A stretch of DNA of 64,000 bases from Patescibacteria group bacterium (GTDB taxonomy: Bacteria > Patescibacteriota > Patescibacteriia > SG8-24 > DYFX01), in NCBI GenBank assembly GCA_038062835.1, contig JBBTWH010000009.1:8257-72256 (forward strand), in the 5' to 3' direction. Of the stretch, positions 1 to 42,168 are shown in pieces. The notes beneath the pieces were generated by a model. The model worked only from the letters and a program-made list of their open reading frames with translations, did not search any database and was not told where the DNA came from. A program made the translations under genes and the position numbers. Position 1 is the stretch's first letter. Each line of letters starts with the position of its first letter.

Positions 1-1037
1 TCATGGAAGATGCGCAGGATGAAGTCGCTGACGATGCGGCTCTTGGATTCGCTGACGCGCTTGAGGTGGTTGCCGTACTGGGGGCTGGAGAACTGGTTGA
101 ACGCGCCGATGACGTTGGACAGGTAGCTGGCCGCGCGGCCGGGGACGGCAGACGAAGCGACCAGGTTGACGTTCACGTCCAATCCGATCTGGCCGAGCTT
201 CTCTTCCATCGATTTGACCATCTGTTCTTCGGAGGGAGACAGGCGATATTCCTTGGCCTTCTCGCCGGTCTTGGATTCGCTCTTCTTTTCGGACGCGAAA
301 GCCGCCATCAGACCGAGCTTCTTGCGTGCCTGCTCAAAGGAGCGTCCTTGCTGCATCAGGGAAGCGATCTTCAGGCCCTTGCCGCGCCATTCCTTTTTCG
401 CCGAACGCACCAGGACCTGGATGGCGGCGCCGTCGGCGGCGGCGACCTTGGCCAGCGCGTTGGTGAGGGCGTTCAGCGGATCGGTCTCGAGATTCTTGTA
501 GGTATGGAGAGGAAAGAAGCTCTCGCGCCCGAATACGAGATGTGCGCTGGCTACCTCGGCCTTGGGCTGGAAAAGATTGTAATCCACGGTCTCCTCGATC
601 TGCGCGAGCGGATACTGCGCGTGGATCTGCTGCTCCATGAATTCCTTCCGGGCCTTCGGCACGGCGACATAGAAGGTGACGAGGCCGTCCTTGGCGACGA
701 TCTCGAAACTCACGACGTCGCCGCGGCCCGAAAGCCACGCGCCGAAGCCGCGCTCCGCGCGCGACCCGCCGATGCTCTTGAAGACGCCTTCGGCCATCGC
801 GATAGCGGCCTGGATCTCATTGAGCGACTTGTCGCGCGTGCCGGCGTCCTTGTCGCCCGCCTCTTTGGGCACCGTAAGCGTCAGGACGACGTTGTCGAAG
901 CCGCGGGCGATCCGCGCGCGCGACGTCAGGACCTTCCGGATCACCCGGACGACGATCAGCAGGACGGCGAAACCGGCGGCGAGCGGGGCCGCCTTCAGGA
1001 GCCACGGCGCCAGCGCAGCGATGTCGAAGGAAATCAT
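1..1037 (-). CDS. hypothetical membrane-anchored protein, 3'-truncated at window edge (N-terminus MISFDIAALAPWLLKAAPLAAGFAVLLIVV...)
   Basis: ATG at 1037-1035 forms an ATGA overlap with the stop of the upstream minus-strand ORF. Own translation gives an N-terminal TM helix followed by a clean, non-repetitive protein with no stops to position 1. Absent from the ORF track because it runs off the window. The + strand ORF 3..1256 is its antisense. Confidence 0.55.
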   Translation of the reverse strand, partial: MISFDIAALAPWLLKAAPLAAGFAVLLIVVRVIRKVLTSRARIARGFDNVVLTLTVPKEAGDKDAGTRDKSLNEIQAAIAMAEGVFKSIGGSRAERGFGAWLSGRGDVVSFEIVAKDGLVTFYVAVPKARKEFMEQQIHAQYPLAQIEETVDYNLFQPKAEVASAHLVFGRESFFPLHTYKNLETDPLNALTNALAKVAAADGAAIQVLVRSAKKEWRGKGLKIASLMQQGRSFEQARKKLGLMAAFASEKKSESKTGEKAKEYRLSPSEEQMVKSMEEKLGQIGLDVNVNLVASSAVPGRAASYLSNVIGAFNQFSSPQYGNHLKRVSESKSRIVSDFILRIFH

Positions 1038-1513
1038 AAGGGTCCGCGCTTGCGCTTTTCCTCTTCCGCCAGCGCCATGATCTTGTCGGTCTTGATCTTG
1101 GCTTCCTGTATCAGGAAAAACCTGTTCACGCCGGGGATCATCTTCAGCCAGCCGAGGATGAGCCCAAGCGCCTCGCGCGCCTTCACCTTGGCGCCGCTCA
1201 CCATCGCGACGATCTTACCCGTCACGCGCTCCCCTTCCTTGCGGAACTTCGCCTGAAGAGCCGGGTTCATCCGGGAATAAACGTCCGCCAGATCCTCCTC
1301 GAGGATGCTTTCGACGCCGCGCGTCGTGGGATCCTTGCGCGCGGCGGACGATGCCGGGGCGGGCACCGGAATCGGAGCGGCCGGAACCGGGTCAAGCGCC
1401 CGTTCAGATCCGCCTGCAGGAACCTCAAAAGAGGCGCTTGTCTCCGGTGACTCAAGCGCTCGGCCGGGCAGTTTCGGCGTCTGTTCAAAGCTGGGAGTCC
1501 CTCCGTCGGCCAT
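1034..1513 (-). CDS. hypothetical protein (159 aa, Pro/Ala-rich N-terminus, conserved-looking C-terminus KIVAMVSGAKVKAREALGLILGWLKMIPGVNRFF)
   Basis: ORF track. Translationally coupled (ATGA) to the downstream gene. Confidence 0.5.
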   Translation of the reverse strand: MADGGTPSFEQTPKLPGRALESPETSASFEVPAGGSERALDPVPAAPIPVPAPASSAARKDPTTRGVESILEEDLADVYSRMNPALQAKFRKEGERVTGKIVAMVSGAKVKAREALGLILGWLKMIPGVNRFFLIQEAKIKTDKIMALAEEEKRKRGPL

Positions 1514-3767: not shown

Positions 3768-4514
3768 ATGCCCATGAACACTGCACCCCCGGCTGCCAAG
3801 GCCCTGGGAGGCATGCCGGCTTCCAAAGGCGGCTCGATCCGCGCCCTCAGCGGAATCGTCGGAATCGTGCTCGGATTCGTAGTCGGCTACGGCGTCGGCC
3901 GCGTCTCGACCGGGACGCCGATCAATCCGCTGTCAGGCTCCACGAACGGAGTGGATCCGGCCGCGCTCGCCGAGGTCCAGCAGAAACTTATCGCTGCGGG
4001 CCTGCTGACGCCGCTCCTGGAAAATACGCCGGTCCTGTCAGGAAAGATCGTGGCTATCTCCGGAAGCAGCCTGACCCTTGAAGCGGACCTCAGCCGTTAC
4101 GATCCGCTCGGCGCCAAGGGGCTGCCGACGCGCCGCATCGTGACGCTGACGGACAAGACTGAGTATGCGCGCTATGAACAGCTCTCGGCCGAAGAGTTGC
4201 GTAAGGAACAAGAGGCGTTCGACGCCTCCCTCCGGAATCCGGAACCGGGGGTCCCGCCTCGTCAGCCGCCTGCGCCATTCAGGCAGACCGAGGCATCGTC
4301 TTCCGACCTGAAAATCGGAGACGCGGTGACGGTCCAGGCTGCTGGTGACATCCTTTCCGCCGAGTCGTTCGAAGCCGTACGCGTATCGATTTCACCGCAA
4401 CCGATCGCGGAACAGGTCCAGAACGCTCCCCCGGACATGCCGGAACCTCCGCCGCCGACCGCGCCCGACTCCGCAGCCGCCTCCACGGAGCCGCCGCCGG
4501 AAGTCGTCCGATAG
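3768..4514 (+). CDS. hypothetical membrane-anchored Pro-rich protein
   Basis: ORF track. N-terminal TM segment (GIVGIVLGFVVGYGVG) and a Pro-rich C-terminus. Divergent from cysS and followed by a terminator. Confidence 0.55.
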   Translation: MPMNTAPPAAKALGGMPASKGGSIRALSGIVGIVLGFVVGYGVGRVSTGTPINPLSGSTNGVDPAALAEVQQKLIAAGLLTPLLENTPVLSGKIVAISGSSLTLEADLSRYDPLGAKGLPTRRIVTLTDKTEYARYEQLSAEELRKEQEAFDASLRNPEPGVPPRQPPAPFRQTEASSSDLKIGDAVTVQAAGDILSAESFEAVRVSISPQPIAEQVQNAPPDMPEPPPPTAPDSAAASTEPPPEVVR

Positions 4515-4518
4515 AAGA

Positions 4519-4548
4519 AAAAACCGCCATCAGGGCGGTTTTTTTCTT
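4519..4548. terminator. bidirectional rho-independent terminator (AAAAAACCGCCatcaGGGCGGTTTTTTT)
   Basis: Perfect stem flanked by an A-tract and a T-tract. It lies between the convergent genes ending at 4514 (+) and 4555 (-). Confidence 0.75.
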
Positions 4549-4554
4549 CGGACC

Positions 4555-7500
4555 CTAACGCGACTTTTCTTCAAGAATCCGCAGGCGCCGCTCCAGGTCA
4601 TCCACCCGGCGCTTCAGGCTCACGGCGTCTTCCATCTCGGCTTCAAGACCATCGATCCTCAGATCCAGCTCCTTGGCGGCGTTGATGAGCACGAACGTCA
4701 AGGCGCTGGAGTCGAAATCGTACAATTCCGTCTTTTCGATATCGCCAGGATCCAGCTTGGCGTCGAACGTGTGGATGGTGTACGGGACGATCGGAAGAGC
4801 TTCCTGGGCGATGAGGCTGATGCCTTCCTCGCCTTTCGGCGTACCCGCCTTGCCGTTCAGCCGATAGCTGACGGGACGCAGCTGCCGAATCTTGTCGAGA
4901 CCGTCCGTAAAGTCCTGGATATCATCCTTGAGACGGCGATCGGAAATGATGCTCCACGTGCCGCTCGTAGGCTTGCCGGCGGAGTTGGCCGAGAGATGCA
5001 GCTGATAGGTCGCATCGGACACTCCGATGCCGACGTACCCGCCGTAGACGGTGTCTGCCCCGTTCCAGTTCATGAACAGCGTCGACACGGCTCCGCTGGA
5101 GTAGGCCTGGATCTCGTTCGCATCGATGGCGATGAAGTCCGCGCCGCCTTGCGAGACCTTCATAGGTGGGTAAGCGCCGGTGGCACCGAGGTCGTTGCCT
5201 CCCCTGACTTCCAGCTTCGCGTCCGGCGCTGACCAACCGATGCCGACATCTCCGCTGACGTAGGCCTTGCCCGCGCCGTAAAACGCATACGAGCTGCCGC
5301 TGCCATAGACGCCGTACGTCCCGCCGCTGAAGTATCCTCCGTACGTCGAGCCGCCCCCGTTGACGCCGGTAGATCCGCCCGAAGCGGCGACGGCGGTGCC
5401 GCCCGCGTTGACGACCACCCCCACTCCTGTCGTCGTGCCCCGCACGCTGACAGCCGTATCAAGAGCGGAGAAAGCGACACCCGTGTTGCTGACGCCGATA
5501 TACGTATTGATCTGCCTGCCGCGAGCGGCGACGGCGTCGAGCGTGTCTTCCTCGGCACCGCAGTTCACCCAAGCGCCGTTCTCGTAACATTTGAACTTAT
5601 TGCTGAGGGTGTCGTAGTACAGCATGCCGTTCGCGCCGGTCGGGGCGGCGGCCATGCTGCCCAGCACGAGCTCGCCGTTGACGGTCGCGCGGTCCGTCGT
5701 CGCATCTCCCAGCATCGAGCCGCCTGTCACGGCGAGAGCTCCGCCTACCGTGACCGTCGCGGCGTTGTCGGCGATGATGGAGTTGCCGAGCGCCGTCGCG
5801 CCGGTGAATTTCGGCAGGGTGTTGGCCGTGCCGCTGCCGGTGAAATCGTCGGCTGCGCTGGCGTCGCCGGTGTTGGCGATCGTCAGCGTATCGGTCGTAG
5901 CGTCGCCCGTGACGCTGATGCCGGCGCCCGCCGCCAGGTTCAGCGTGTCGGCGGCGGAATCCGGAAGCGGATCCGTGCCGGAAGGAGCGTTGATCGTGCT
6001 CCAGGCGTTCGGCTTGCAGTCCGACCACGCTCCGTTCTCGTAGCAGCGGAACTTATTGGAGGTGGAGTTGTAGAAAGTCATGCCGTTCACGCCGCCGGGA
6101 TCGGACGAAATCGAGCCGAGCGTCAGCGTACTGTTGTGCGTAACCGCGCCGACAAGCAATGCGTTGTAGTTCACGTAAAGCGAGGAAAAATGTCCGCCCC
6201 ATCCGGTCGCCGATTCGCCGAAGACGCCGTCCGCGCCACCCAGTCCTTGCCCGTGGACGCCCTTACCAAGCCCGCTTGCGGCGGTGTTGACGCCGTAGAC
6301 GCCCTGGCCCGAACCGGCCGCGGTGCCGTAGACGCCGTACAAAGTCCCGCTACCGGATACGCCCGTGCTTCCGGCGCCGGTGGACGTTCCGACAATGGCG
6401 TTGGGATCGATGGTGTAGGCCGAAACGGTCGTGGCTTTCACCCCTCCGTATACTTCGAGTTTATTGGCCGTGGGCGCGCCGCCGATCGCGACGCCGGAAC
6501 CGTCATCTTGGATCTGGGAGTCGCCGACGGTCGCGCCAGCGCCCGTGAACTTCGCGAGATAGTTGGGCGTGCCCGCGCCGCCAAGCGTCGCCGGGCAGTT
6601 CACGCCGTTCGCGCGGCAGACGCTCTGTCCAGCGACGGTCAGGTTTCCGGTAAAGGCACCCGTGCCTGCGACGGTCAGGTTGCCGGCCTGGTTGACGCTC
6701 AAGACCGTCGAGCTGTCGGCGTTGTTCCTGATGTTGAGGGCGTTGCCGGCCGTCGGGCTCACGATCTTGACCGAGTCGCCGGTACCGCCTGAACGGAAAT
6801 CAGCTCCGATGCCGGCCGCGCCGATACCTTGGGAGCGGATGCCGATGCCGCCCGTCGCGAAGACTCCGAAGGAACCGGCGGTGTTCGTGAAATATCCTCC
6901 GTAACCGGCCGCGCCGGTCGAGACTCCGTAGACGGCGGTGTTCGCGTTGCCCATCACGCCATAACCGGAGATGCCGGACTCGAAGCGTCCGCCGGCGGTC
7001 ACGCCGTTGCCGTAGACGCCATAGCTGGTCGTCGGATCGGTACCGACGCCGTACAGTCCGAAGCCGGTCGCGCGGGCGGCGATACCCGTCGCGTCAGCCG
7101 CGACGGCGCCGGATCCGACCGCGATGGTCGTCGTGGTCGTGCGCCCGCGGGCGGCGACCGTCTGCAACGTGTCGGCTTCAGTCACCACGCCGGTGATGGT
7201 GCCCGTGACGGTCAGATTGCCCCCGATCGTCGTGTCGCCGCCCGCCGCCACTCGGAACTCGTCAACCGACTCGTTCTGGAGCAGGAGCAGGCTGCCGACC
7301 GAGGCCGCGTCGATGTTGCCGTAGAGGAGGTTCTGTCCGGCGCCCACGCTCAAAGCCGCGGAGCCGAGCGAAGACATCCCCGAGAGCGCGTTATTGCCGG
7401 TGAACGTGCCGTTGGCGTTATAGAGCGCGACGTTCGTCGAAAGACGCGCGTCCGCGAGCGTGCCGCTCGAGATGTTGCTCGCGTTCAGCGTGGTCAGGCC

Positions 7501-8373
7501 CGCGCCGCTGCCGGTGAAGGAGTTAGCGACGTTGTTGAACGTGACGGCGCTGGAGTACGTGCCCGAGATACGTCCGCTCGGCACCGTGCCGCTCGTCAGT
7601 TGCGACGCGTTCATGGACGTCAGTCCCGCGCCGCTGCCGGTCAGCCCTCCGGATGACGTCAACGTGCCGCTGACGGTGAGCGCGCCCGGAATCACGACGT
7701 TGTTGGTGGCGGAAACCGTAAGCCCAGTCACGCCGTTCGTGACGAAGCTGATGGTGTCCGCCGTGCCGCGGAAGATGCCGGTGTTGGTGTCGCCGGAAAA
7801 GGTCAGTGACGGAGCCAGGTTGGTCCCTGCCGGGAGTGACAGCACGCCGGTTATGATGGACGTGCCGACGTTGTTGATGATGGTCCGCGCGGCACCGCCG
7901 GTCACGAACGACATCGAATCCGCTCCGCTGGAATACAGGCCCGTGTTGGTGTCGCCGATGTAGCTGTACGACGGAGCGCCGGCGCTTCCCGACGGAAGCT
8001 GCATCTGGCCGACCAGCGTGACGCGCAGGCGGTCGGCGGCGGCGTTCTGGAGCAGCAGCAGGCTGCCGTTGGTCGATGCGGCTCCGACGTTGCCGTAGAT
8101 AAGGTTGTCGGTCACGAGCGACATGACCGGAGCGAGAGCGCCGGTCTGGAAGGTGCCGCCGAGCTTCTGCGAGCCGGAAATGTTGATGCTGGCCGCCTGA
8201 GCGGCGCCAGCGATATCGACGTTCTGGATGACGGACGGATTGCAGTTCGGAGGCACGCAGGTCGGGGCCGCGAATTGCGCGTGAACGGAGCCCGCGACGG
8301 CCAAGACCGTCAGCGCTGAGAAAGCGGCGGCGATCCGGGTACGGACGTTCATGAGGACGCGCATAACTCGCAT
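4555..8373 (-). CDS. large secreted fibre-like surface protein (1272 aa) with C-terminal intramolecular-chaperone auto-processing domain (peptidase S74 type)
   Basis: Signal peptide MRVMRVLMNVRTRIAAAFSALTVLAVAGSVHAQ. Long Gly/Ser/Thr-rich repeat body with recurring motifs (SGAGLTxxNASxxxSGT; SNKF[RK]CYENGAW appearing twice). The C-terminus DRRLKDDIQDF..LDKIRQLRPVSYRL...ISLIAQEALPIVPY matches the endosialidase/tail-fibre chaperone motif SDxRLKxNI...L.P..Y.W...IAQEV. Confidence 0.8.
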   Translation of the reverse strand: MRVMRVLMNVRTRIAAAFSALTVLAVAGSVHAQFAAPTCVPPNCNPSVIQNVDIAGAAQAASINISGSQKLGGTFQTGALAPVMSLVTDNLIYGNVGAASTNGSLLLLQNAAADRLRVTLVGQMQLPSGSAGAPSYSYIGDTNTGLYSSGADSMSFVTGGAARTIINNVGTSIITGVLSLPAGTNLAPSLTFSGDTNTGIFRGTADTISFVTNGVTGLTVSATNNVVIPGALTVSGTLTSSGGLTGSGAGLTSMNASQLTSGTVPSGRISGTYSSAVTFNNVANSFTGSGAGLTTLNASNISSGTLADARLSTNVALYNANGTFTGNNALSGMSSLGSAALSVGAGQNLLYGNIDAASVGSLLLLQNESVDEFRVAAGGDTTIGGNLTVTGTITGVVTEADTLQTVAARGRTTTTTIAVGSGAVAADATGIAARATGFGLYGVGTDPTTSYGVYGNGVTAGGRFESGISGYGVMGNANTAVYGVSTGAAGYGGYFTNTAGSFGVFATGGIGIRSQGIGAAGIGADFRSGGTGDSVKIVSPTAGNALNIRNNADSSTVLSVNQAGNLTVAGTGAFTGNLTVAGQSVCRANGVNCPATLGGAGTPNYLAKFTGAGATVGDSQIQDDGSGVAIGGAPTANKLEVYGGVKATTVSAYTIDPNAIVGTSTGAGSTGVSGSGTLYGVYGTAAGSGQGVYGVNTAASGLGKGVHGQGLGGADGVFGESATGWGGHFSSLYVNYNALLVGAVTHNSTLTLGSISSDPGGVNGMTFYNSTSNKFRCYENGAWSDCKPNAWSTINAPSGTDPLPDSAADTLNLAAGAGISVTGDATTDTLTIANTGDASAADDFTGSGTANTLPKFTGATALGNSIIADNAATVTVGGALAVTGGSMLGDATTDRATVNGELVLGSMAAAPTGANGMLYYDTLSNKFKCYENGAWVNCGAEEDTLDAVAARGRQINTYIGVSNTGVAFSALDTAVSVRGTTTGVGVVVNAGGTAVAASGGSTGVNGGGSTYGGYFSGGTYGVYGSGSSYAFYGAGKAYVSGDVGIGWSAPDAKLEVRGGNDLGATGAYPPMKVSQGGADFIAIDANEIQAYSSGAVSTLFMNWNGADTVYGGYVGIGVSDATYQLHLSANSAGKPTSGTWSIISDRRLKDDIQDFTDGLDKIRQLRPVSYRLNGKAGTPKGEEGISLIAQEALPIVPYTIHTFDAKLDPGDIEKTELYDFDSSALTFVLINAAKELDLRIDGLEAEMEDAVSLKRRVDDLERRLRILEEKSR

Positions 8374-8390
8374 GATTCCCTTCTATCTTA

Positions 8391-8897
8391 TCACTCTTTG
8401 CGCCCGCTGAATATCATCATCGCGGCGATGGGCGCGACCAGCCAGACGAACTTGGCGGGGTCGGAAACGAAGACCATCCTGGTCTGGTCCGAGAAGACCG
8501 TCATGGCCGATTCCGGCAGGAACGTCAGGCCGACGCTGATCAGCAATCCGACGTGCAGGACGCTGAACATCACGGTCTGAAGGAGGCGTCCTCCCCCGCC
8601 GGTATCGAGCGAGCGGATGAGCGCGTTCTTCGAGAGGAAGAAGAACAGCAGGACGAAGACGCCAAGGAAGGTGCCGATCTTGAACGCGAAGTCGTTGACG
8701 GAGACCGCCGCCGAGATGTCTCGGATGTAGGGGGCGTTGGTGACGACCGCCAGGCCCATGTAGATGGAGACCATGATGACGACGATGCGGTCGCGGCCGA
8801 GCGTCAGGCCGTAGAGCAAGGCGCCGATCATGAAGAACAGCAGCAAAAATACGTCCCACGTCGGCGCCGAAAAATCCAACTGCCCGAAAAAAGGCAT
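8391..8897 (-). CDS. polytopic membrane protein (about 4 TM), hypothetical
   Basis: ORF track. Strongly hydrophobic helices. Lies 17 bp upstream of the fibre gene on the same strand. Confidence 0.6.
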   Translation of the reverse strand: MPFFGQLDFSAPTWDVFLLLFFMIGALLYGLTLGRDRIVVIMVSIYMGLAVVTNAPYIRDISAAVSVNDFAFKIGTFLGVFVLLFFFLSKNALIRSLDTGGGGRLLQTVMFSVLHVGLLISVGLTFLPESAMTVFSDQTRMVFVSDPAKFVWLVAPIAAMMIFSGRKE

Positions 8898-9100
8898 ACT
8901 GAGGACAGTATACCTTATATTCGCCTATTTTCGGCTAACTTGTGGGGATAAGTCGGCGCTCCGGGTCAGTCATCCGTTCGCTGGCGCCGGGAAGAGGAAT
9001 GCCCCTCTTTGAACGGACGCTGCGCGAACGGACGCCTGACCCTCCGCTTTGGAGGAGACGGGGGAGTTGCTATCACCCCGGCGGAGGCCGGGGTCCACGC

Positions 9101-10897: not shown

Positions 10898-11197
10898 TCA
10901 GGGCCCAGCACCGCACGCGAAGCTATAAAGGTCTTTCCACTCCGGATTTTCTTTTTCTACCAACTCGATCTTCCAACGTCGTTTCCAATTCTTCAGTTGT
11001 TTTTCCCGTGCGATCGCGCTCAGCACGTCCGTCGCGCATTCGTACCAGACGAGGCTTGTGATGTCGTACTGCGAGGTATGGCTGTCGGCCGCGTGTGTCC
11101 GATGCTCGTAGACCCTCTTCACAAGGTTTGATGTGACTCCGATGTACAACGCGCCACCTTTCCGATTCGCCAGGATATAGACGTAGTAGTTTCGCAT
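10898..11197 (-). CDS. GIY-YIG nuclease domain protein (99 aa)
   Basis: YVYILANRKGGALYIGVTSNLVKRVYEH...REKQLKNWKR matches the GIY-YIG / UPF0213 signature. Confidence 0.8.
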   Translation of the reverse strand: MRNYYVYILANRKGGALYIGVTSNLVKRVYEHRTHAADSHTSQYDITSLVWYECATDVLSAIAREKQLKNWKRRWKIELVEKENPEWKDLYSFACGAGP

Positions 11198-13639: not shown

Positions 13640-14227
13640 TTACTGGGATTCGCGCATCTCTTCGCTGTAGAAGTCCTCAACGATTTTTTCCTTAGTCAGA
13701 AAAAGCTTGACCGGCTGTCCAGTGATCTTTTCCCAAATCGCGCGGCCAAACACGTAGAGCACAGAGAGGACACGGAAGAAGAAATAAAGCATGAAGAAGG
13801 CCTGCCAAACGACACCGGGCACACCCAGTACCTTGTCCGGGAACCTCGAGGTCAGCAGGAAGCCCAGCAAGAGAACGACGCTTTCGGCGCTCAGGAACAG
13901 GCCCCAGCGCCGCCCAACCGCTTCCGCAAGAAGAGCCAGCGCGTCCTTGAGCCTGTGGTCAGGCATCGGCACCACCCTATCCTCAGGAAGGCCGTAAAGT
14001 TTCGGGTGCTTGTGTGCGAACTTGAGCATATTTTTTTCCGAACCCGAGGGCATCAAGCTTTTTTCCATGTCAGCCAGAATCGCGTTGTACGCTTCGTTAA
14101 CTTCTTTAAACTTCTTAGGGTCTCCACCCTTGTCGGGATGATGCTTCTTGGCCAACTTTTTGTAGGCCTTCTTGATTTCATCAATCGAGGCTGACGGTTC
14201 AACCTCAAGGACTTCGTGTGGGGTCAT
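13640..14227 (-). CDS. membrane-anchored J-domain protein
   Basis: N-terminal J domain with HPD ([35 protein letters not shown]) and C-terminal hydrophobic helices. Start at 14227; the upstream part of the track ORF is Arg/Pro junk. Confidence 0.75.
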
Positions 14228-14229
14228 AC

Positions 14230-14523
14230 TCACTCCGCCTTCGCCTGGAAGCTGGCGCCGGCCGCTTCGAATTTGACCAGCTTGTTGATGGTCTGGACGG
14301 CGAGCTTCATCGACGTGGCGCCGGATTTGTGCTTGGGGAGGTCGCGGAGGCGGATCTTCTGTTCCTTGGCGCGGTTGCCGTTCTCGTCGACGGCGCGCGA
14401 AGGCACCGTCACGAGCATGTCGGGGTCGAGGCGGAAGAAATTCAGGAAGTTCCCCCACTCCTTGAAGGAGAAGCGGTGGTGCTGGTAGTCGGATTCCCAC
14501 TCGAGATCGCTTTTGAACACCAT
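14230..14523 (-). CDS. hypothetical protein (97 aa)
   Basis: ORF track. Balanced composition. Its stop lies 2 nt before the start of the J-domain gene. Confidence 0.5.
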
Positions 14524-27174: not shown

Positions 27175-28878
27175 TCACTTGCGGGTAGGCGGTATCTGAT
27201 AGTAGTCGAGCAGGAACTTGGCGATGTCGCCGAACAGCGGCGCGGCCGACGACTCGGCGAACTGCACGTCCTTGGGACGGTCGATGCGCACGACCATCGC
27301 GAACTTCGGATCGTCGATAGGGCCGTAGCCGGCGAATGATCCGATGGTGGCGCCGATCTCATAGCCGGGTCCGTCCTTGCGCGCGATCTGCGCGGTGCCG
27401 GTCTTGCCGCCGATCCAGTATCCCGGCACGCCCGCGCGTTTGCCGTGCCCACGCTCGACGACGGCGGTCAGCATGCCGGAGACGAGCCTGGCGGCGCGTT
27501 CCGAGACGACGCGGCGCAGGGCCTTGGGAGCGCGCTTCTCGACCGTGCCGTCGGCGCGGCGTATCTCCTCCACTATGTAGGGCTTCATCATCATGCCGTC
27601 ATTGGCGAGCGCCGCATAGGCCGCCGCCATCTGGAGCGCCGTCACGGTGATGCCCTGGCCGTAGGAACCGGTCGCCGACCAGATGTCGCCCTTGCGCTCA
27701 AGCGGTTCGATGTCGCCGGCCGCTTCCGAGTGCAGCTCGAGTCCCGGCTTCTGGCCGAAGCCGAAGTCGCGCACGTATGTGAGGAAAGTCGGCGCGCCGA
27801 GACGATGGACCACCTCGACCATGCCGGTGTTGAGAGATTCCGCCAGGACGTCCGTCATCGTGACCTTGCCGTGCGCCTTGAGGTCGGAATTGCGGATGGT
27901 GTACGGCCCGATCTTCACTTCACCAGGGTCGTCGAAGGGCGTCGCGGGGGAGATCTTATCCGTATCGAGGCCGGCCGCCATCGTGATGGTCTTGAAGATC
28001 GAGCCCGGCTCGTACGCGTCGAACGCGGCGGTGTCGTTATAGACGCCGATGTCTTCGACCTTTCCGTAGTCGTTCGGGTCGAAGGCCGGGGCGTTGCAAA
28101 GGGCGATGACGGCGCCGGTATCCGGTTCGACGATGACGACGCTCCCCCGCTCGGCTCCGTGGCGCGCTACCCACTCCTCGAGCTTGCGGCAGGCGACGTA
28201 TTGCACGGTACGGTCGACGGTCAGCACCAGGTCGGAGCCGTCCTTGGCCGGCTTGACGGTACGGTTGCCTACGGCGATGGCGCGCCCGCCCGGATCCTTC
28301 TCCGACTCGAGATAACCCTGCGCGCCGGTCAGCTCCTTGTCGAACCAGCCCTCGATGCCGTAGCGCCCGCTTCGTCCGCGTTCGCTCTCGCCGACGAACC
28401 CGAGCATCTGCGCGGCGACGGAACCTTCGGGATAAAAGCGGTACTCCTCCTCGGAGAAGCCGATGCCTCCGATCCCAAGCGCCTCTATCTTGGCGCGCGT
28501 CTCGTCGTCGAGCTTGCGCGCGAGGGCGCGGTAGCGCTCGTCCTTATTCGAAAGCTTCTCCGCCAGTTTTTCGGGCTCCTCGCCGATGAGCGGCGCGATG
28601 GCGCGCGCGGCGGAGAGCGGATCCTTCAGACGGAAAGGTTCCGCGTACAGGAGGTGCATCGGACGGTTGGTGGCCAGGAGATATTCCTGGTCGCCGGAGG
28701 CGCGATCGCGCGCGTAGATCTTCCCTCGCTCGGGGAAAAGTTGACGGAACAGGTCGTGCTGTCCTTCCGCCAAGGCGGCATAGAAATCGTGACCGAGCAC
28801 CTGGATGCGGAAGAGCTGCCCGAAGATCAGCGCCCCGAACAGGAAAAAGCCCAGGCGAAGCAGTCGCAGGCGGCTCAT
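27175..28878 (-). CDS. ftsI: peptidoglycan D,D-transpeptidase FtsI/PBP2-like (class B PBP)
   Basis: N-terminal TM helix, dimerisation domain, SxxK (GSIFK), SxN, and KTGTAQ. Confidence 0.9.
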   Translation of the reverse strand: MSRLRLLRLGFFLFGALIFGQLFRIQVLGHDFYAALAEGQHDLFRQLFPERGKIYARDRASGDQEYLLATNRPMHLLYAEPFRLKDPLSAARAIAPLIGEEPEKLAEKLSNKDERYRALARKLDDETRAKIEALGIGGIGFSEEEYRFYPEGSVAAQMLGFVGESERGRSGRYGIEGWFDKELTGAQGYLESEKDPGGRAIAVGNRTVKPAKDGSDLVLTVDRTVQYVACRKLEEWVARHGAERGSVVIVEPDTGAVIALCNAPAFDPNDYGKVEDIGVYNDTAAFDAYEPGSIFKTITMAAGLDTDKISPATPFDDPGEVKIGPYTIRNSDLKAHGKVTMTDVLAESLNTGMVEVVHRLGAPTFLTYVRDFGFGQKPGLELHSEAAGDIEPLERKGDIWSATGSYGQGITVTALQMAAAYAALANDGMMMKPYIVEEIRRADGTVEKRAPKALRRVVSERAARLVSGMLTAVVERGHGKRAGVPGYWIGGKTGTAQIARKDGPGYEIGATIGSFAGYGPIDDPKFAMVVRIDRPKDVQFAESSAAPLFGDIAKFLLDYYQIPPTRK

Positions 28879-30053
28879 AGACCGAAGCCGAACAGCGCGC
28901 CCGGACCGACCGGATTCATGCCCTTGTCCAATTCCAGCGCGTCGCTCCAGCCGTCGCCGTCCGTATCGGGATTCCAGGCGTCGGATCCATAGAAATGCTC
29001 TTGCCCGTCCGAAAGGCCGTCGCCGTCGCTGTCCGCCTCCCGTACGGCCGCGCCGGTCGCCGGAAGAGTCGCCTGAAGAGCGGGCGTCGTTTCAGTCGCC
29101 GTCGGCCCGCGACCGCCGGCGAGGCTCAGTCGTTTGGAAAAAGCCGGACCGAGAGCCTTCTCGACGTCTTCCGCCTGCGGCACGTCGAAGACGACCGGTC
29201 GTCCGTAACGGGAGAACCGCACGGTGCCGCCCACGGCCCCGGACGCATCCGCTCCGTTCATGGCGCTGAAGAGGCCGATCTTGAGGAATTTCCCGGTGCG
29301 CTTGTCGATCCAGACCTCGCCGACCGGTTTTCCCCACCGGATCATGTCCGCCGTCACGGCCAGGACGTCCTCGGCGTCGATGGCCCGTCCGACGCGCGCC
29401 TCGCGAAGCTTGAGAAGCAGGGCCGAGACGGCCTCCATGTTCATCTCGACGGCATAATGGCGCGCCTTGGCGTCGAGCAGCTTCTCGTCCGGCAGTTTTT
29501 CGGTGACGGTGAAGAGGTCGACGCTCGAGAACGCCTGCGCCATGGCGGCCACCCCGAGCGCGTCGAGCGGCCGTTCCGCGAGCGCTCGTTCGTCGGGCGG
29601 CAGGATGAATTCCAGGAACGGCCGCTCGGAAACGACCCACTTTCCTTTCAGCCGCGCGGCGACGTCGGAAGAAAGATCCCCGGTATCTTCGAGTCTCAGG
29701 TAGTGGCGCCCGTCCTTGCGCCGCGCCTCGCCGGAGAGCCTCATCTCCGCCGAGCCGCTCCCTTGAGCGAAGGCGAAGGTCGAGACCGAAGCATGCCTGA
29801 ACGGATCGGTGCGATCGAGATCCACGCGCATGACGATGTCGACGCCTGTCGCGCTCGGCGTCGCGACGCCACCCAATTCCTGCGGCGGCAGCGCGAGCGC
29901 CGCTTCCGACTCGACACGCATCGTCTTCTCGACGGCGAGCTTGCGCTGCGCCTTGTTGAGGACGGTCCTGGGGGCGGGTTCCGACAGGAACACGGCCATC
30001 GACACGACGGCGGCAAGTCCGAGCCCTCCGAAGATGATCGCGCGCTTAGGCAT
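28875..30053 (-). CDS. hypothetical membrane-anchored periplasmic protein with C-terminal calcium-binding (thrombospondin type-3-like) Asp-rich repeats
   Basis: TM helix at the N-terminus. C-terminus EADSDGDGLSDGQE...NPDTDGDGWSDALE. ATGA-coupled to ftsI. Confidence 0.55.
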   Translation of the reverse strand: MPKRAIIFGGLGLAAVVSMAVFLSEPAPRTVLNKAQRKLAVEKTMRVESEAALALPPQELGGVATPSATGVDIVMRVDLDRTDPFRHASVSTFAFAQGSGSAEMRLSGEARRKDGRHYLRLEDTGDLSSDVAARLKGKWVVSERPFLEFILPPDERALAERPLDALGVAAMAQAFSSVDLFTVTEKLPDEKLLDAKARHYAVEMNMEAVSALLLKLREARVGRAIDAEDVLAVTADMIRWGKPVGEVWIDKRTGKFLKIGLFSAMNGADASGAVGGTVRFSRYGRPVVFDVPQAEDVEKALGPAFSKRLSLAGGRGPTATETTPALQATLPATGAAVREADSDGDGLSDGQEHFYGSDAWNPDTDGDGWSDALELDKGMNPVGPGALFGFGL

Positions 30054-37950: not shown

Positions 37951-40900
37951 TCAGCGGTAGGTCACGGTGATGTCGTCGAGCGTCGGCGTCACCGAGGTAT
38001 CGCCCGTCGCGAGCAGGGCGCGGTACTGGAGATAGCGGCTGACGGGGGCAGTGATGGCCGTGCCGGTGGCGACGGTCATCTCGGAGGTGAACGGCGACCA
38101 GCCGCCGTCCGGCGTCGGCGTGTTGCCGGTCCGGATGGCGACGGTCAGCGTGGTCATGGCCGGAATCGACCTGTTCCAAAACGAGACCATCGGCGTCGAG
38201 GTCGCCACGTCCATGTCGAGAATGGAGGAGAGGAAGGTACCGGTGGGCTGGTAGGTCGGCGGGTCTTTCAATAAGATTCCGAGCTTGCCGCAGATCCAAC
38301 CGTCGGTCGGGGCTTCGACGGTGATGCCGTAGAGGTGGCGGGTGGTCGGTGACGTGAAGCTCGTCCAGTTCGCGCCGTCCCACTGAATGATGGCGCCGGA
38401 GTCGCCGTTCGCCCAAGCTTCCGAGGAGGATCTCGCCTCCACCGCGTTCAGTGACGAGACGACGGGGCTCGTGACGGTCGACCAGAGCGTGCCGTTCCAG
38501 CGGACGATGACGCCGTTCGCGCCGACCGCCCAGCACGAGGTCGAAGACAGGCAATGGACGGCATTCAGGCGGCTGGCCGTCGGCGAGGTTTGCGTCGCCC
38601 ACAACGCGCCGTTCCAGCTGACGATGGTGCCTGAATCGCCGACGGCCCAACCAGTGACGGCATCGACCATCCAAACGCCGCGAAGCGCGTTGCCGGTCGG
38701 AGAAATCGCCGGAAGCCAGGCGACGCCGTTCCAATGGACGATAGTCCCGCCCTGGCCGACGGCAGCGCCGAAGGCGGATGAGGTCATCGATACCGAGAAG
38801 AGGTCGTTGCCCGTCGGACTGGACTGCACGGCCCAGGGCGCGTTGTTAAAGCGGATGATTTCTCCTTGATTGCCGACAGCGAAGGCGAGCGCCGACGAGA
38901 CCGCGTCGACGCCGTTCAGGTTACGGATCGTCGGCGAGGACGTGGCGGACCACGTGAGTCCGTCGTAGTGGATGATGGTGCCGACGCGGCCGACGGCCCA
39001 GACGTCCGAAGCGCCGGTGCCGTCGGTGTCATAGAGGTCCTGCGCGGTGACTGCGCTGTGGATCATGCGCACTTCCTGCAGGATGGAGGTCTGATACGAC
39101 TGCGAGTTGGTGAAGGTCACACGGTATTGGAGATAGCGGTTCGGCGGCGCCGTGATGGTCGCGCCGCCCGCGTCCGAATATTCGGAACTCCAGGCCGACC
39201 AGCTGCCGTCGGGCGTCGGCGTGGGGCCGCTGCGCACGGCCAGGGTCAGCGACGCGAACGGCTGGGTGGTGTAATCCCAGGCGATGGAGTTCCAGACGGC
39301 GGTCGAGGAGCCGCTGTCCACGACGGTGCTCGTGAAATACGCCGGCGACGTATAGAAGGCGGTGTAGTGATAGATGGCGCCGCCCTCGCCGACGGCCCAT
39401 CCATCCGTCGGCGTCATCAGGAAGACGCTCTGCACCAGCGGGTTGGACTGGTTGGCGAAGACGTACTGGGACCAGACGGCGCCGTCCCAATGCAGGAAGG
39501 TCTGTTCGATGCCGACCGCCCAGCACTCGGTCGAAGAGAGGCAGTGGACGTCGCGAAGCTCGTTGGGCGTATTGCTCGTCACGATATTCCATGCCGTGCC
39601 GTTCCAATGGCGCGTCATGCCGCCTGCGCCCACGGCGACGGCGAAGCTCGCGTCCACCATCGAGACGCCGTAGAAGGCGTTGGTGGTGCCCGATGTCATC
39701 GTCGACCAGGTCGTGCCGTTATATCGGATGATGGTGCCGTTACGGCCGACGGCGATGCAGTCGCTGGCGCTGGCGCAGCTCACGCTCTCCAGATCCTTGT
39801 TGACGGGACTCGTCATCGTCGCCCAGCTGGCGCCGTTCCACCTCAGGATCACGCCTGACTTGCCGACGGCGAAGGCCAGGCTGGCCGAGATGACGTCGAC
39901 GGCGAACAGGTCGAGGCCGGTCGGGCTCGAGAAGTTCGCCCAGCTGGCGCCGTTCCAACGGATGATGCGACCGTTCAGGCCCACGGCCCAGGCATCGGAG
40001 GTCGACGAAAAGTCGACGCCCTGCAAGGTATCGGTCGTCGGCGAGGCGAAGGTCGACCAGTTGGAGCCGTCGAAGCGCAGGATGTTACCGCCCTGGCCGA
40101 CGGACCACCCGTCGGAGGCCGAGGTCAGGACGGTATCGTACATCGTGGCGGACGTCGGGGCGTCGTAGGTGATCGTGATGTTGTTGAGCGACGGCGTGAC
40201 CTGCGTGTTGGTCGTCGACATCGTCAGGCGATACTGGATGTACCGGCTGTCGGCGTTCGCGATGACCGACCCGAACGGATCCGTCACTTCCCCGCTGAAG
40301 GCGGTCCAGCTGACGTCCGGCACGGCCACGTTGCCGGTGCGGACCGCGACCGTGAGGTCCGTGCCGCTGTCGAGGTCCTCGTTCCAGAAGAGCCGGTCCC
40401 AATTCGCGCTGGCCGTCGCGTCGAAGACATTCGAGGTGTAGGTGCCGGAGGTCGGATAGTTGGAACCGTATTTCAGGAAGGTCGGACCGGCGCCGACGGC
40501 GTATCCCTCGCCGGCCGACACCATATCGACCGCGTTGAGCTGGTTGACGGTGGGCGAAGCGACCGACGCCCAGCTCGTCCCGTTCCAATGGATGACCGCG
40601 CCAGTCACGCCGACGGCCGTACAGAACGACGCGGAGACGCAATCGACGTCAAGAAGGCTTACGGCCACCGGAGACGACACCGTGTTCCAGGCCGTGCCGT
40701 TGAAGCGCCGGATGACGCCGTTGTTGCCGACGATCCAGCCGTCGGTCGCCGAGACCATCTCGACGCCGTTCCATTGATGCGACCCAGTATCCGTATGAAG
40801 GCTCCAGGCCGTGCCGTTCCAGCGCCTGATCTCGCCAGCGGTCCCGACGACCCAGCAGTCCGAGGCCGTGACGCAGGTCACCGCGTACCACACTTGGCTG

Positions 40901-42168
40901 CCGGTATCGGTATGCGCGTTCCAGGCGGTGCCGTTCCAGCGCCTGATCTCGCCGCCGTTTCCGACGATCCAGCCGTCGGTCGCCGAGACCATCCGGACGG
41001 ACTGCCATTGCTGGTTGCCGACGTCGGCGAACTGGCTCCAGGCCGTGCCGTTCCAACGATAGATCTTGCCGGAGTCGCCGGCCGCCCAGCAATCTGAGGT
41101 CGTACGGCAGTGGACGCCGAAGACCTCCTGGTTGTTGAGGTCATGGGTCAGGACCCAGCCGGTGCCGTCCCAGCGATAAAACCGTCCGGATTGCCCGACC
41201 GCGCGGCCGTCTATCGACGACAGCATCGATATCTCGTACAGGGATCCGGCGCCAGGAGCCGGGGCCAGCGTGCCCCAGCTCGTGGAGTTGGCCAGGATGA
41301 CGCGCCCGAGGTCGCCCGTGTCGGCCACCACCGTGCCGCTGAAGGAACCGTCATTGAAATGCGTGTGGGTGGTCTCGAAGAAGCTCTTGCCGGCGATGAT
41401 CTGGATCCATTCCGGATCGCCGGTTCCCGTGACCGACGACGGCGTGCCGCTGCCGCTCACGACGGTGTCCTGGAAGGCGCCGGGGCCGAAGTCGGTATCG
41501 GTCGTGTGGGTGACGAGAAGCCCCTCAGCCGGCGTCCAGGTCTTCACGCCCGTCGTCGAGAGCTGGAGGCTGGCGCCGTCGCCGGTGCCGTAGACTTCCG
41601 TGGCGTTGTGCGTGCCAGCGTTGAAATCGACGTCGGTCGTCTGCTTCCAGTCATAGACGCCCCAGTCGGTCAGATACATCGACCGCGTGACGTCGCGCGG
41701 GATGGCCAGGACGCCGGAGTTCCAAAGGACCGCCACGACGACCTTGCGCGTGCGCGGGTCGACCGTGCCGCCGGACGCGACGATGACGTTCAGGCCGTCC
41801 CGTTCCACTTCGGTGACCGTCACGGTCCGCGTGTAGGTGCCGTCGATCTGGTCGGAGGCTCCCAGGAAGACCCAGTTGCCGCTTCCGTCCTGCGCGAGGC
41901 CGTGCGTGCCGAGCGCGAGGTCGCTCCAGCGGTTCTCCTTGATGGCGCGCGCCGCCTCAAGGCCCTGCGTGGCGAGGAACGTGGCGCGCGTGCGGTCGGC
42001 GCCCGATGCCGCCGACGCCAGCGGGTTCAGCACGAGCAGGATGACGCCGCTCGCGAGCACGGCGAAGACGCCGACCGCGATCAGCACCTCCATGACGGAT
42101 TGTCCCGCGTAAAAGCCCATCCGGGGCTCACGCGGCGATGCGCGCTTATTCTGCCACCACGCGGCCAT
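37951..42168 (-). CDS. giant prepilin-anchored adhesin (1405 aa): N-terminal pseudopilin-like helix plus three tandem modules of a Ycf48/BNR-like beta-propeller and a roughly 110-aa RYLQYR domain
   Basis: N-terminus RMGFYAG|QSVMEVLIAVGVFAVLASGVILLV (Gly, then Glu+5). About 18 blade repeats of the form GWAVG..G.I.RWNGT.W. Three conserved inter-propeller domains ending ..RY[IL]QYR..L....TP.L..IT[IV]TY. Start could instead be the internal MGFYAG at 42120. Confidence 0.75.
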   Translation of the reverse strand: MAAWWQNKRASPREPRMGFYAGQSVMEVLIAVGVFAVLASGVILLVLNPLASAASGADRTRATFLATQGLEAARAIKENRWSDLALGTHGLAQDGSGNWVFLGASDQIDGTYTRTVTVTEVERDGLNVIVASGGTVDPRTRKVVVAVLWNSGVLAIPRDVTRSMYLTDWGVYDWKQTTDVDFNAGTHNATEVYGTGDGASLQLSTTGVKTWTPAEGLLVTHTTDTDFGPGAFQDTVVSGSGTPSSVTGTGDPEWIQIIAGKSFFETTHTHFNDGSFSGTVVADTGDLGRVILANSTSWGTLAPAPGAGSLYEISMLSSIDGRAVGQSGRFYRWDGTGWVLTHDLNNQEVFGVHCRTTSDCWAAGDSGKIYRWNGTAWSQFADVGNQQWQSVRMVSATDGWIVGNGGEIRRWNGTAWNAHTDTGSQVWYAVTCVTASDCWVVGTAGEIRRWNGTAWSLHTDTGSHQWNGVEMVSATDGWIVGNNGVIRRFNGTAWNTVSSPVAVSLLDVDCVSASFCTAVGVTGAVIHWNGTSWASVASPTVNQLNAVDMVSAGEGYAVGAGPTFLKYGSNYPTSGTYTSNVFDATASANWDRLFWNEDLDSGTDLTVAVRTGNVAVPDVSWTAFSGEVTDPFGSVIANADSRYIQYRLTMSTTNTQVTPSLNNITITYDAPTSATMYDTVLTSASDGWSVGQGGNILRFDGSNWSTFASPTTDTLQGVDFSSTSDAWAVGLNGRIIRWNGASWANFSSPTGLDLFAVDVISASLAFAVGKSGVILRWNGASWATMTSPVNKDLESVSCASASDCIAVGRNGTIIRYNGTTWSTMTSGTTNAFYGVSMVDASFAVAVGAGGMTRHWNGTAWNIVTSNTPNELRDVHCLSSTECWAVGIEQTFLHWDGAVWSQYVFANQSNPLVQSVFLMTPTDGWAVGEGGAIYHYTAFYTSPAYFTSTVVDSGSSTAVWNSIAWDYTTQPFASLTLAVRSGPTPTPDGSWSAWSSEYSDAGGATITAPPNRYLQYRVTFTNSQSYQTSILQEVRMIHSAVTAQDLYDTDGTGASDVWAVGRVGTIIHYDGLTWSATSSPTIRNLNGVDAVSSALAFAVGNQGEIIRFNNAPWAVQSSPTGNDLFSVSMTSSAFGAAVGQGGTIVHWNGVAWLPAISPTGNALRGVWMVDAVTGWAVGDSGTIVSWNGALWATQTSPTASRLNAVHCLSSTSCWAVGANGVIVRWNGTLWSTVTSPVVSSLNAVEARSSSEAWANGDSGAIIQWDGANWTSFTSPTTRHLYGITVEAPTDGWICGKLGILLKDPPTYQPTGTFLSSILDMDVATSTPMVSFWNRSIPAMTTLTVAIRTGNTPTPDGGWSPFTSEMTVATGTAITAPVSRYLQYRALLATGDTSVTPTLDDITVTYR

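Follow-up and report, generated by a model that had tools for sequence, protein, structure and literature searches.

The fibre gene and its chromosomal locus

A 64-kb stretch of DNA from a Patescibacteria group bacterium (64,000 nucleotides of contig JBBTWH010000009.1), referred to here as the window, contains one copy of a gene for a long fibre protein that is predicted to be secreted. Patescibacteria are the candidate phyla radiation and are named as the phylum Minisyncoccota in the NCBI taxonomy. The fibre gene is located at 4555..8373 on the (-) strand and encodes 1272 amino acids (aa) plus a stop codon, and both the open reading frame (ORF) list and the translation agree with the first-pass annotation of this DNA in this respect. 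The NCBI version of the protein (P0001, 100 % identity) starts three codons downstream, which gives 1269 aa, and is otherwise identical. It already carries the product name 'MAG: tail fiber domain-containing protein [Patescibacteria group bacterium]', where MAG denotes a metagenome-assembled genome. The identical 1272-aa gene is called in three further assemblies. The DNA of the window also recurs in other assemblies, one of which is the 95.6-kb contig Hain_H41_02um, a name that suggests groundwater passed through a 0.2-um filter step as the source. The exact-sequence look-up with the 1269-aa NCBI version returned no record.

The protein is rich in Gly, Thr, and Ser as had been claimed for its body (G 16.0, T 10.8, and S 9.4 %) and also in Ala (12.7 %). 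The predicted signal peptide covers aa 1-32 (MRVMRVLMNVRTRIAAAFSALTVLAVAGSVHA / QF; 8278..8373, -) and is the sole hydrophobic segment of the fibre, which has no further transmembrane (TM) segment. It exhibits an Arg-rich n-region, a hydrophobic core at aa 14-28, and a V-H-A/Q-F site at -3/-1, and the claim of a signal peptide is thus borne out by features that can all be read from the sequence. A(-1), Q(+1), and F(+2) at the predicted cleavage site are invariant among 19 members of the fibre family. The signal peptide appears to be of Sec type and would be cleaved at this site. The eight Cys residues of the fibre form four short-range pairs (39/44, 586/593, 777/786, and 929/938), and pairs of this kind are usual in extracellular proteins. 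The signal-peptide features, the four short Cys-Cys loops, and the lack of any other TM segment all suggest that the fibre is secreted.

The neighbours of the fibre gene are cysS on one side and dnaJ, dnaK, hsp20, grpE, and hrcA on the other side. The rest of the window contains genes for a P-type ATPase, YidC, Dus, a Ser/Thr kinase, a Mur ligase, penicillin-binding proteins (PBPs), and MgsA, as well as a type IV pilus cluster and two-component systems. All identifiable genes of the window are cellular. Capsid, terminase, portal, tail, integrase, and lysis genes were not found in the window, in keeping with the earlier claim that phage genes are absent nearby. The window also contains no reverse transcriptase and no sign of a diversity-generating retroelement.

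The gene order hrcA-grpE-hsp20-dnaK-dnaJ-fibre-p248-cysS-...-VirB4-like ATPase-dnaX recurs in related genomes. It is kept in eight loci (L001, L002, L004, L006, L007, L009, L012, and L013), and the genomes that share it include the complete 1.17-Mb chromosome CP129476.1. Each of at least eight related Patescibacteria genomes has a single orthologue in this slot, with dnaJ and cysS on either side. Across those genomes, the housekeeping genes have diverged to 63-89 % identity, and the fibre gene has therefore been inherited and kept intact over long periods.

These findings bear on whether the gene is a prophage or tailocin remnant, i.e., the tail-fibre gene of a degraded phage without a cellular role. 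The C-terminal Peptidase_S74 (S74) domain of the fibre is typical of phage fibres and spikes, and the fibre matches several PHROG tail-fibre families (phrog_1980 with E=1.2e-17, and also phrog_5481, 4563, 18345, and 28766). However, the matches to isolate phages (26-36 % identity) are confined to the S74 region and the sequence immediately ahead of it. The N-terminal signature of the fibre was not found in IMG/VR (2.9 million viral contigs). The fibre gene encodes a Sec signal peptide, which virion fibres are not known to have. Its third-position guanine plus cytosine (GC) content of 0.83 is similar to that of other genes of the window, and the regional GC content matches that of the surroundings. 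Together with the fixed chromosomal slot and the lack of phage genes in the window, these observations largely refute the remnant explanation, which we consider extremely improbable. The evidence supports a stable cellular gene that uses a phage-type folding module. The first-pass annotation had likewise proposed a cellular surface fibre with a co-opted module of this type, and the genuine S74 domain, the housekeeping synteny, and the absence of the N-terminal domain from IMG/VR are all in its favour.

Domains of the fibre and variation across its family

The S74 intramolecular chaperone covers aa 1144-1272 (4558..4944, -) and is genuine by profile, catalytic dyad, and modelled fold, as the first-pass annotation had claimed for the C-terminus. 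The Pfam profile Peptidase_S74 (PF13884) scores 48.5 bits (E=1.1e-12) at aa 1144-1197, compared with a gathering score of 22, and the match spans positions 1-54 of the 58 positions in the profile. The catalytic motif S1144-D-R-R-L-K1149 is encoded at 4927-4944 and aligns, as SDRRLK, with SDRRIK of phage S16 gp37. Only S1144, D1145, K1149, A1189, and Q1190 are invariant in the alignment of 20 C-termini, so the Ser-Lys dyad S1144/K1149 is both present and invariant among the aligned homologues. The five residues correspond to alignment columns S61/D62/K66/A106/Q107, and A1189 and Q1190 are part of the conserved IAQE at about aa 1188-1191.

The C-terminal fragment alone matched the PDB weakly, and the C-terminal profile gave a clearer result. 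The profile matched 6F45 (S16 gp37, 4e-19), 7DC3 (MyRF, 1e-17), 8JOV (tail fibre, 4e-14), and 3GUD (GA-1 neck appendage, 6e-7). In the AlphaFold2 (AF2) model of aa 1084-1272, the 10-residue blocks of the S74 part reach a predicted local distance difference test score (pLDDT) of ~85-96, and the model ends in a long C-terminal helix of ~50 residues (aa ~1223-1271). The top Foldseek match of this model is 7DC3 (root-mean-square deviation (rmsd) 2.6 A, 122 columns, TM-score 0.66-0.71), followed by K1F 3GW6 and 3GUD. A strand-rich segment precedes the predicted cleavage site at aa 1084-1143 (4945..5124, -) and is modelled by AF2 as strands only, with pLDDT ~60. In this region, VGIGVSDATYQL at 4999-5034 aligns with the 'VGINTDRPDEAL' loop of MyRF according to the profile alignment to 7DC3 and a regular expression. 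Given its homology to the known S74 proteins, the domain should trimerise the fibre and then self-cleave at S1144.

The presence of S74 could also point to a tailspike-like secreted enzyme, i.e., an S74-folded polysaccharide depolymerase that digests host or matrix glycans as the K1F endosialidase does. Endosialidases are the proteins for which S74 was originally described, depolymerase tailspikes often carry it, and weak PDB matches to the tail-spike proteins 6EU4 and 9VVR were obtained via the S74 region. However, S74 is the only Pfam match of the fibre at E<=0.1, and both the NCBIfam search and the PDB search with the full-length sequence returned nothing. The body consists of short Gly/Thr/Tyr-rich repeats that are typical of fibre shafts, and the best match among phages carries a distal tail fibre annotation. 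An enzymatic tailspike is therefore quite unlikely, since no catalytic domain was detected by the Pfam, NCBIfam, and PDB sequence searches.

The shaft consists of several kinds of repeats. Two ~54-aa 'APSYSFxGDTNTGxY' repeats were identified by self-comparison at aa 119-236 (7666..8019, -), where aa 122-236 match aa 176-290 with E=1.4e-14. These repeats match the PHROG tail-fibre families phrog_18345 and phrog_28766. The ~54-aa repeat is widespread and is without a Pfam model: 4079 cluster representatives carry it at E<=1e-3, and up to 45 matched stretches are present in one 3918-aa protein. The 'SGAGLTxLNASxxSSGTLxDARLS' repeat module follows at aa 240-330 (7384..7656, -). The earlier pattern SGAGLT.[LM]NAS..[ST]SGT[LV]...R[LI]S was recovered by regular expression in exactly two copies, at 7564-7635 (aa 247-270) and 7438-7509 (aa 289-312). 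This LNAS/DARLS module is 55-68 % identical to modules of fibre proteins with a different N-terminus, part of which are named in their source as Verrucomicrobia/Planctomycetes-type. The high-identity matches to those proteins are confined to the module (aa ~230-345).

A variable mosaic region that comprises the rest of the shaft and the distal part covers aa 331-1083 (5125..7383, -), as seen from self-comparison, regular expressions, and Cys positions. It contains Gly/Tyr-rich repeats and three short Cys-Cys loops. Along the whole fibre, self-comparison identified duplicated modules at aa 60-120 and 320-380, at aa 399-480 and 941-1030, and at aa 745-786 and 897-938. The last pair is 57 % identical and holds the SNKF[RK]CYENGAW.[DN]C element, which was likewise found in exactly two copies, at 6016-6060 (aa 772-786) and 5560-5604 (aa 924-938), as had been noted before. 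The VGIGWSAPDAKL loop motif is present within the variable region at 5212-5247.

The family-defining N-terminal domain covers aa 33-118 (8020..8277, -) and was delimited from the alignment of 19 members, which exhibits 18 invariant columns. The block A-Q-F-x-x-P-x-C-x-P-P-x-C-x-P-x-V-I-Q-N directly after the signal peptide is the best-conserved part of the fibre, and with it the domain carries the Cys39/Cys44 pair. No Pfam match was obtained in the N-terminal region. The N-domain profile yielded only two short fragments in the word-indexed protein search, which is not informative. In the exhaustive HMMER search, its matches were dominated by the ~54-aa DTNTG repeat, and by rough count ~19 of the top 150 matches represent the true N-domain.

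The family was defined as the 29 of the top 120 homologues that share the block directly after the signal peptide. The conservation along the fibre is uneven. The region aa 1-400 is aligned in 20-25 of the 29 members at ~38-50 % identity, the region aa 400-1100 in 5-13 members at 32-38 % identity, and the S74 end in 16-17 members at 32-39 % identity. The flanking genes are 73-94 % identical to those of the closest genome, and the fibre can be aligned with its counterpart there only in two parts, aa 2-388 at 62 % and aa 1118-1272 at 44 % identity. Over aa 551-1266, its distal half instead resembles fibres from genomes that are less closely related (39 %). To judge by these alignments, the distal part of the fibre is a recombination mosaic that has been swapped between lineages. 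Four proteins (P0020, P0022, P0024, and P0037) have the N-domain and no Pfam S74. One of them, P0020 in L012, is an orthologue in the same dnaJ-cysS slot with a different C-terminus that lacks S74.

The signature was identified in 10 genomes in a scan of one genome per species, including the complete CP129476.1, with one locus in each; the scan was pattern-based and divergent paralogues may have escaped it. The complete genome and others with the N-terminal signature are labelled Patescibacteria or Minisyncoccota. Six third-party annotation MAGs (L005, L006, L007, L009, L010, and L014) with the Patescibacteria-type locus are titled 'uncultured Gammaproteobacteria bacterium', and the fibre homologue P0003 is labelled Candidatus Baltobacteraceae. 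Both labels are probably the result of mislabelling or mis-binning.

Fibres that terminate in S74 are already known from bacterial genomes and are routinely annotated, and the mechanism of S74 is standard. Neither this Patescibacteria family nor its N-terminal signature or fixed locus was found described in the searchable literature on Patescibacteria with tail fibre, S74, or 'chaperone of endosialidase'.

The upstream membrane protein and other features of the window

A 168-aa membrane protein is encoded at 8391..8897 (-), 17 bp upstream of the ATG of the fibre gene, as seen from the ORF list and hydrophobicity. It exhibits four strong hydrophobic segments and one weaker segment (4-5 TM) and has no match in Pfam, PHROG, or NCBIfam. 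We have identified 222 homologues across Patescibacteria at about 50 % identity. The first-pass annotation had described this protein as a co-transcribed neighbour of the fibre with 4 TM segments. Co-transcription is plausible because the 17-bp gap contains nothing that resembles a terminator, and the gap and the four strong segments were found as described. The notion of a functional pair of fibre and membrane protein was rejected on distribution. The membrane protein directly follows dnaJ in the distant genomes L016-L020, which are free of the S74 fibre, and its homologue adjoins cysS in L015, which is also distant and without the S74 fibre. The L002/L004 lineage has no copy of the membrane protein gene in the interval from dnaJ to the fibre gene, and what follows the fibre gene there is a lipoprotein-like gene that is unrelated. 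The 168-aa protein is a conserved backbone gene and its adjacency to the fibre is incidental, because it is widespread without the fibre and absent beside it in L002/L004. It is nearly always located directly after dnaJ and looks like an uncharacterised last member of the hrcA-grpE-dnaK-dnaJ cluster.

The spacer between dnaJ and the membrane protein gene comprises 203 bp (8898..9100, -). Read from the sequence, it exhibits a GC-rich hairpin right after the dnaJ stop codon and an AT-rich stretch ahead of the ATG, which could possibly represent the terminator and the promoter of a two-gene transcript. The scan for consensus promoters and terminators returned sites no more frequently than in shuffled sequence, and no strong sigma-70 site was found in the spacer.

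The interval from the 168-aa protein to cysS (window 3768-8373) is a variable slot across Patescibacteria. The slot is empty in L020, holds PAP2 in L015, and holds a 972-aa Peptidase_C1/PEGA/NosD protein in L018. The slot in L016, L017, and L019 holds 611-629-aa secreted Gly/Thr-rich fibre-like proteins. The N-termini of these shorter proteins match the family N-domain with an hhalign probability of 94.8 % (E=5.4e-8, 112 columns), in a comparison that includes the signal peptide and is built on shallow alignments. The single-sequence comparison of the same proteins with the family N-domain is weak. The neighbouring protein p248 is encoded at 3768-4514 (+), convergent with the fibre gene. It comprises 248 aa, spans the membrane once, and has a Pro-rich tail. 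It is present beside the fibre in all related loci yet is only 33-42 % identical, i.e., fast-evolving, and it is without a family match.

Several other features of the window were observed. Positions 1-1513 (-) hold a 159-aa ORF together with the first part of a VirB4-like ATPase (DUF8128/DUF87 in orthologues), both of the Patescibacteria-type type IV secretion system (T4SS). In all genomes examined, these VirB4-like/T4SS genes are no more than a few kb away from the fibre slot. The proximity of the VirB4-like ATPase to the fibre is conserved, but housekeeping genes intervene. The paper on the T4SS of Patescibacteria mentions no fibre.

The identical contig L021 carries calls for a 99-aa GIY-YIG protein after dnaK (10898-11197, -) and for a 195-aa extra J-domain protein between a 97-aa ORF and hsp20 (13680-14230 region). 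Both are unusual inserts in the heat-shock cluster. A 392-aa protein with TSP3_bac (bacterial thrombospondin type 3) repeats is encoded at 28875-30053 (-) between a PBP gene and mgsA and is probably another surface protein. The type IV pilus cluster contains a 1405-aa ORF at 37951-42168 (-) between pseudopilin-like genes. The N-terminus of its product resembles a prepilin (G/QSVMEVLIAVGVF), Pfam domains are lacking, and the ORF may encode a giant minor pilin or tip adhesin. ARAGORN placed a tRNA-Pro inside it at 38047-38128 (+), which has no Rfam support and is probably a false positive.

Proposed role and likeness to known systems

We propose that the gene encodes a secreted, chromosomally encoded fibre of the Patescibacterium that is built on the plan of phage tail fibres and attaches to a partner or host cell, and we give this reading a probability of roughly 0.6. 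The analysis itself demonstrates the ORF, the S74 domain including dyad and fold, the syntenic single-copy locus in a cellular setting, and a fibre that is conserved in its proximal part and variable in its distal part. Of the steps that follow, trimerisation and autocleavage are expected from homology, and signal-peptide cleavage, N-terminal anchoring, and host attachment are likewise inferred. The Sec signal peptide (aa 1-32) would carry the chain across the membrane. The S74 chaperone (aa 1144-1272) would then register three chains and fold them from the C-terminus, after which it would cleave itself off at Ser1144 through the Ser1144/Lys1149 dyad. A mature trimeric fibre of aa ~33-1143 would be left, with the newly exposed distal end as the binding tip. 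The strictly conserved N-domain would keep the fibre at the cell surface. The mosaic distal two-thirds would decide the ligand, which would most likely be a surface structure of the partner or host cell.

Partner-cell attachment is the likeliest role because the plan of the fibre is that of phage fibres and of the mosaic adhesive trimer (MAT) fibres of Bdellovibrio, and because the cultivated Patescibacteria are episymbionts. PMC12206443 describes all cultivated Patescibacteria as episymbionts and type IV pili as their only well-supported host-attachment factor so far.

Several observations weigh against this proposal. The source organism is uncultured. The AF2 monomer of the N-terminal 160 aa has a pLDDT of 59.6, which is too poor for a fold search, and the N-domain as cell-proximal anchor is for this reason a conjecture. 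Neither LPxTG nor any other known type of wall-anchor motif was found in the fibre. No within-population variation was seen in the fibre gene among the three other assemblies compared. Two of these are identical to the window over the shared stretch, and the third has 11 base differences, of which eight are in dnaK, close to where the matched stretch ends, three are in cysS, and none is in the fibre gene. Diversification of the fibre is therefore seen between species only. In addition, a surface protein that is under pressure from phages or grazers and has no attachment role could likewise diverge fast and become mosaic.

The main rival to attachment is accordingly a less specific adhesin or envelope spike, e.g., an S-layer-associated spike or a biofilm or mineral adhesin, that recognises no specific host cell and whose variability stems from evasion of phages or grazers for which it serves as receptor. 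Both explanations draw on identical structural evidence, strain-level variation was not seen, and the slot holds other secreted proteins such as the 972-aa protein of L018, which suggests a general 'surface protein slot'. However, a conserved base, swapped distal modules, and both S74 and non-S74 ends at one locus constitute the plan of the receptor-binding proteins of phages and of the Bdellovibrio MATs. In addition, the region that is exposed by cleavage is the ligand-binding site in solved S74 fibres (PMC10769870). We regard a general adhesin as possible but less likely than attachment to a partner cell.

The attachment reading can be extended further, although only tentatively. The fibre may be the host-recognition organelle, or 'cellular tail fibre', of an episymbiotic Patescibacteria clade, in which the exchange of distal modules and tips at a fixed slot would set the host that can be attached. 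This system may be old and widespread in the phylum, since shorter fibre-like proteins with a homologous N-domain are present in the same slot of distant Patescibacteria. How ultrasmall Patescibacteria recognise and hold their hosts is largely unexplained, and the fibre is a concrete candidate for a determinant of host specificity. The fixed dnaJ-cysS locus makes the fibre easy to find in MAGs, and the tip types could be compared with the co-occurring hosts.

Four known systems resemble the fibre. The first consists of S74 fibres with the 'GTAFTYQGRL' N-terminus (hits P0013-P0120, some of which are named Verrucomicrobia/Phycisphaerales). They share the LNAS/DARLS module at 55-68 % identity and many of them have an S74 end, whereas their N-domain is unrelated and they belong to other phyla. 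The second is the MyRF ICA domain (7DC3). It is the best structural match to the modelled C-terminus, its profile match has an E-value of 1e-17, and its VGINTDRPDEAL loop can be aligned with the fibre. MyRF is another case of a phage module co-opted by a cell, but it is a eukaryotic membrane-bound transcription factor whose cleavage frees a DNA-binding domain and not a surface fibre.

The third system comprises phage fibres and tailspikes (K1F 3GW6, T5 pb1 4UW8, S16 gp37 6F45, and GA-1 3GUD). They share with the fibre the chaperone-protease domain, the Ser-Lys dyad, the fold, and the C-terminal helix. The shaft modules match PHROG tail-fibre families, and both exhibit a conserved attachment end and a variable receptor end. 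In contrast to phage fibres, the Patescibacteria fibre has a Sec signal peptide, and its N-terminus is absent from viral contigs and is not a virion-attachment domain. It has no phage neighbours, is inherited vertically among housekeeping genes, and is at most 36 % identical to isolate phages, in the S74 region and the stretch just before it only.

The closest kin in plan would be the S74 subgroup of the Bdellovibrio bacteriovorus MAT fibres, e.g., Bd3182. In MAT fibres, a signal peptide and a conserved N-domain are combined with tips that vary and with ends that either are S74 (SDxxxK) or lack it. The fibres are displayed on the surface of the predator and engage its prey (Caulton et al. 2024, PMC10769870). 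Both fibres are encoded by the cell. Both exhibit a signal peptide, an N-domain that is conserved within the family, a long repetitive shaft of trimer type, and variable distal ends. In both families, some members carry a C-terminal S74 (SDxxxK) and others lack it, and both exhibit a VGI[GN]xxx[PA]xxxL-type loop motif ahead of the cleavage site. Both organisms may also be alike in living on other bacteria, as far as the lifestyle of cultivated Patescibacteria can be extended to the bearer of this fibre.

The two systems differ in phylum and envelope, and Patescibacteria are thought to lack an outer membrane. The N-domain of the Patescibacteria fibre has its own signature (AQF..P.C.PP.C.P.VIQN), and the likeness is one of arrangement. 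The sole Bacteriovoracaceae match (P0091) is missing its own N-terminus and is aligned only at aa 164-226 and the S74 region. The Patescibacteria fibre has one fixed locus in each of 10 species-level genomes, in contrast to 21 paralogues in B. bacteriovorus HD100. If the proposed role is true, the MAT principle, in which cells that dwell on other cells borrow the architecture of phage fibres, would extend to a second and very large bacterial lineage.

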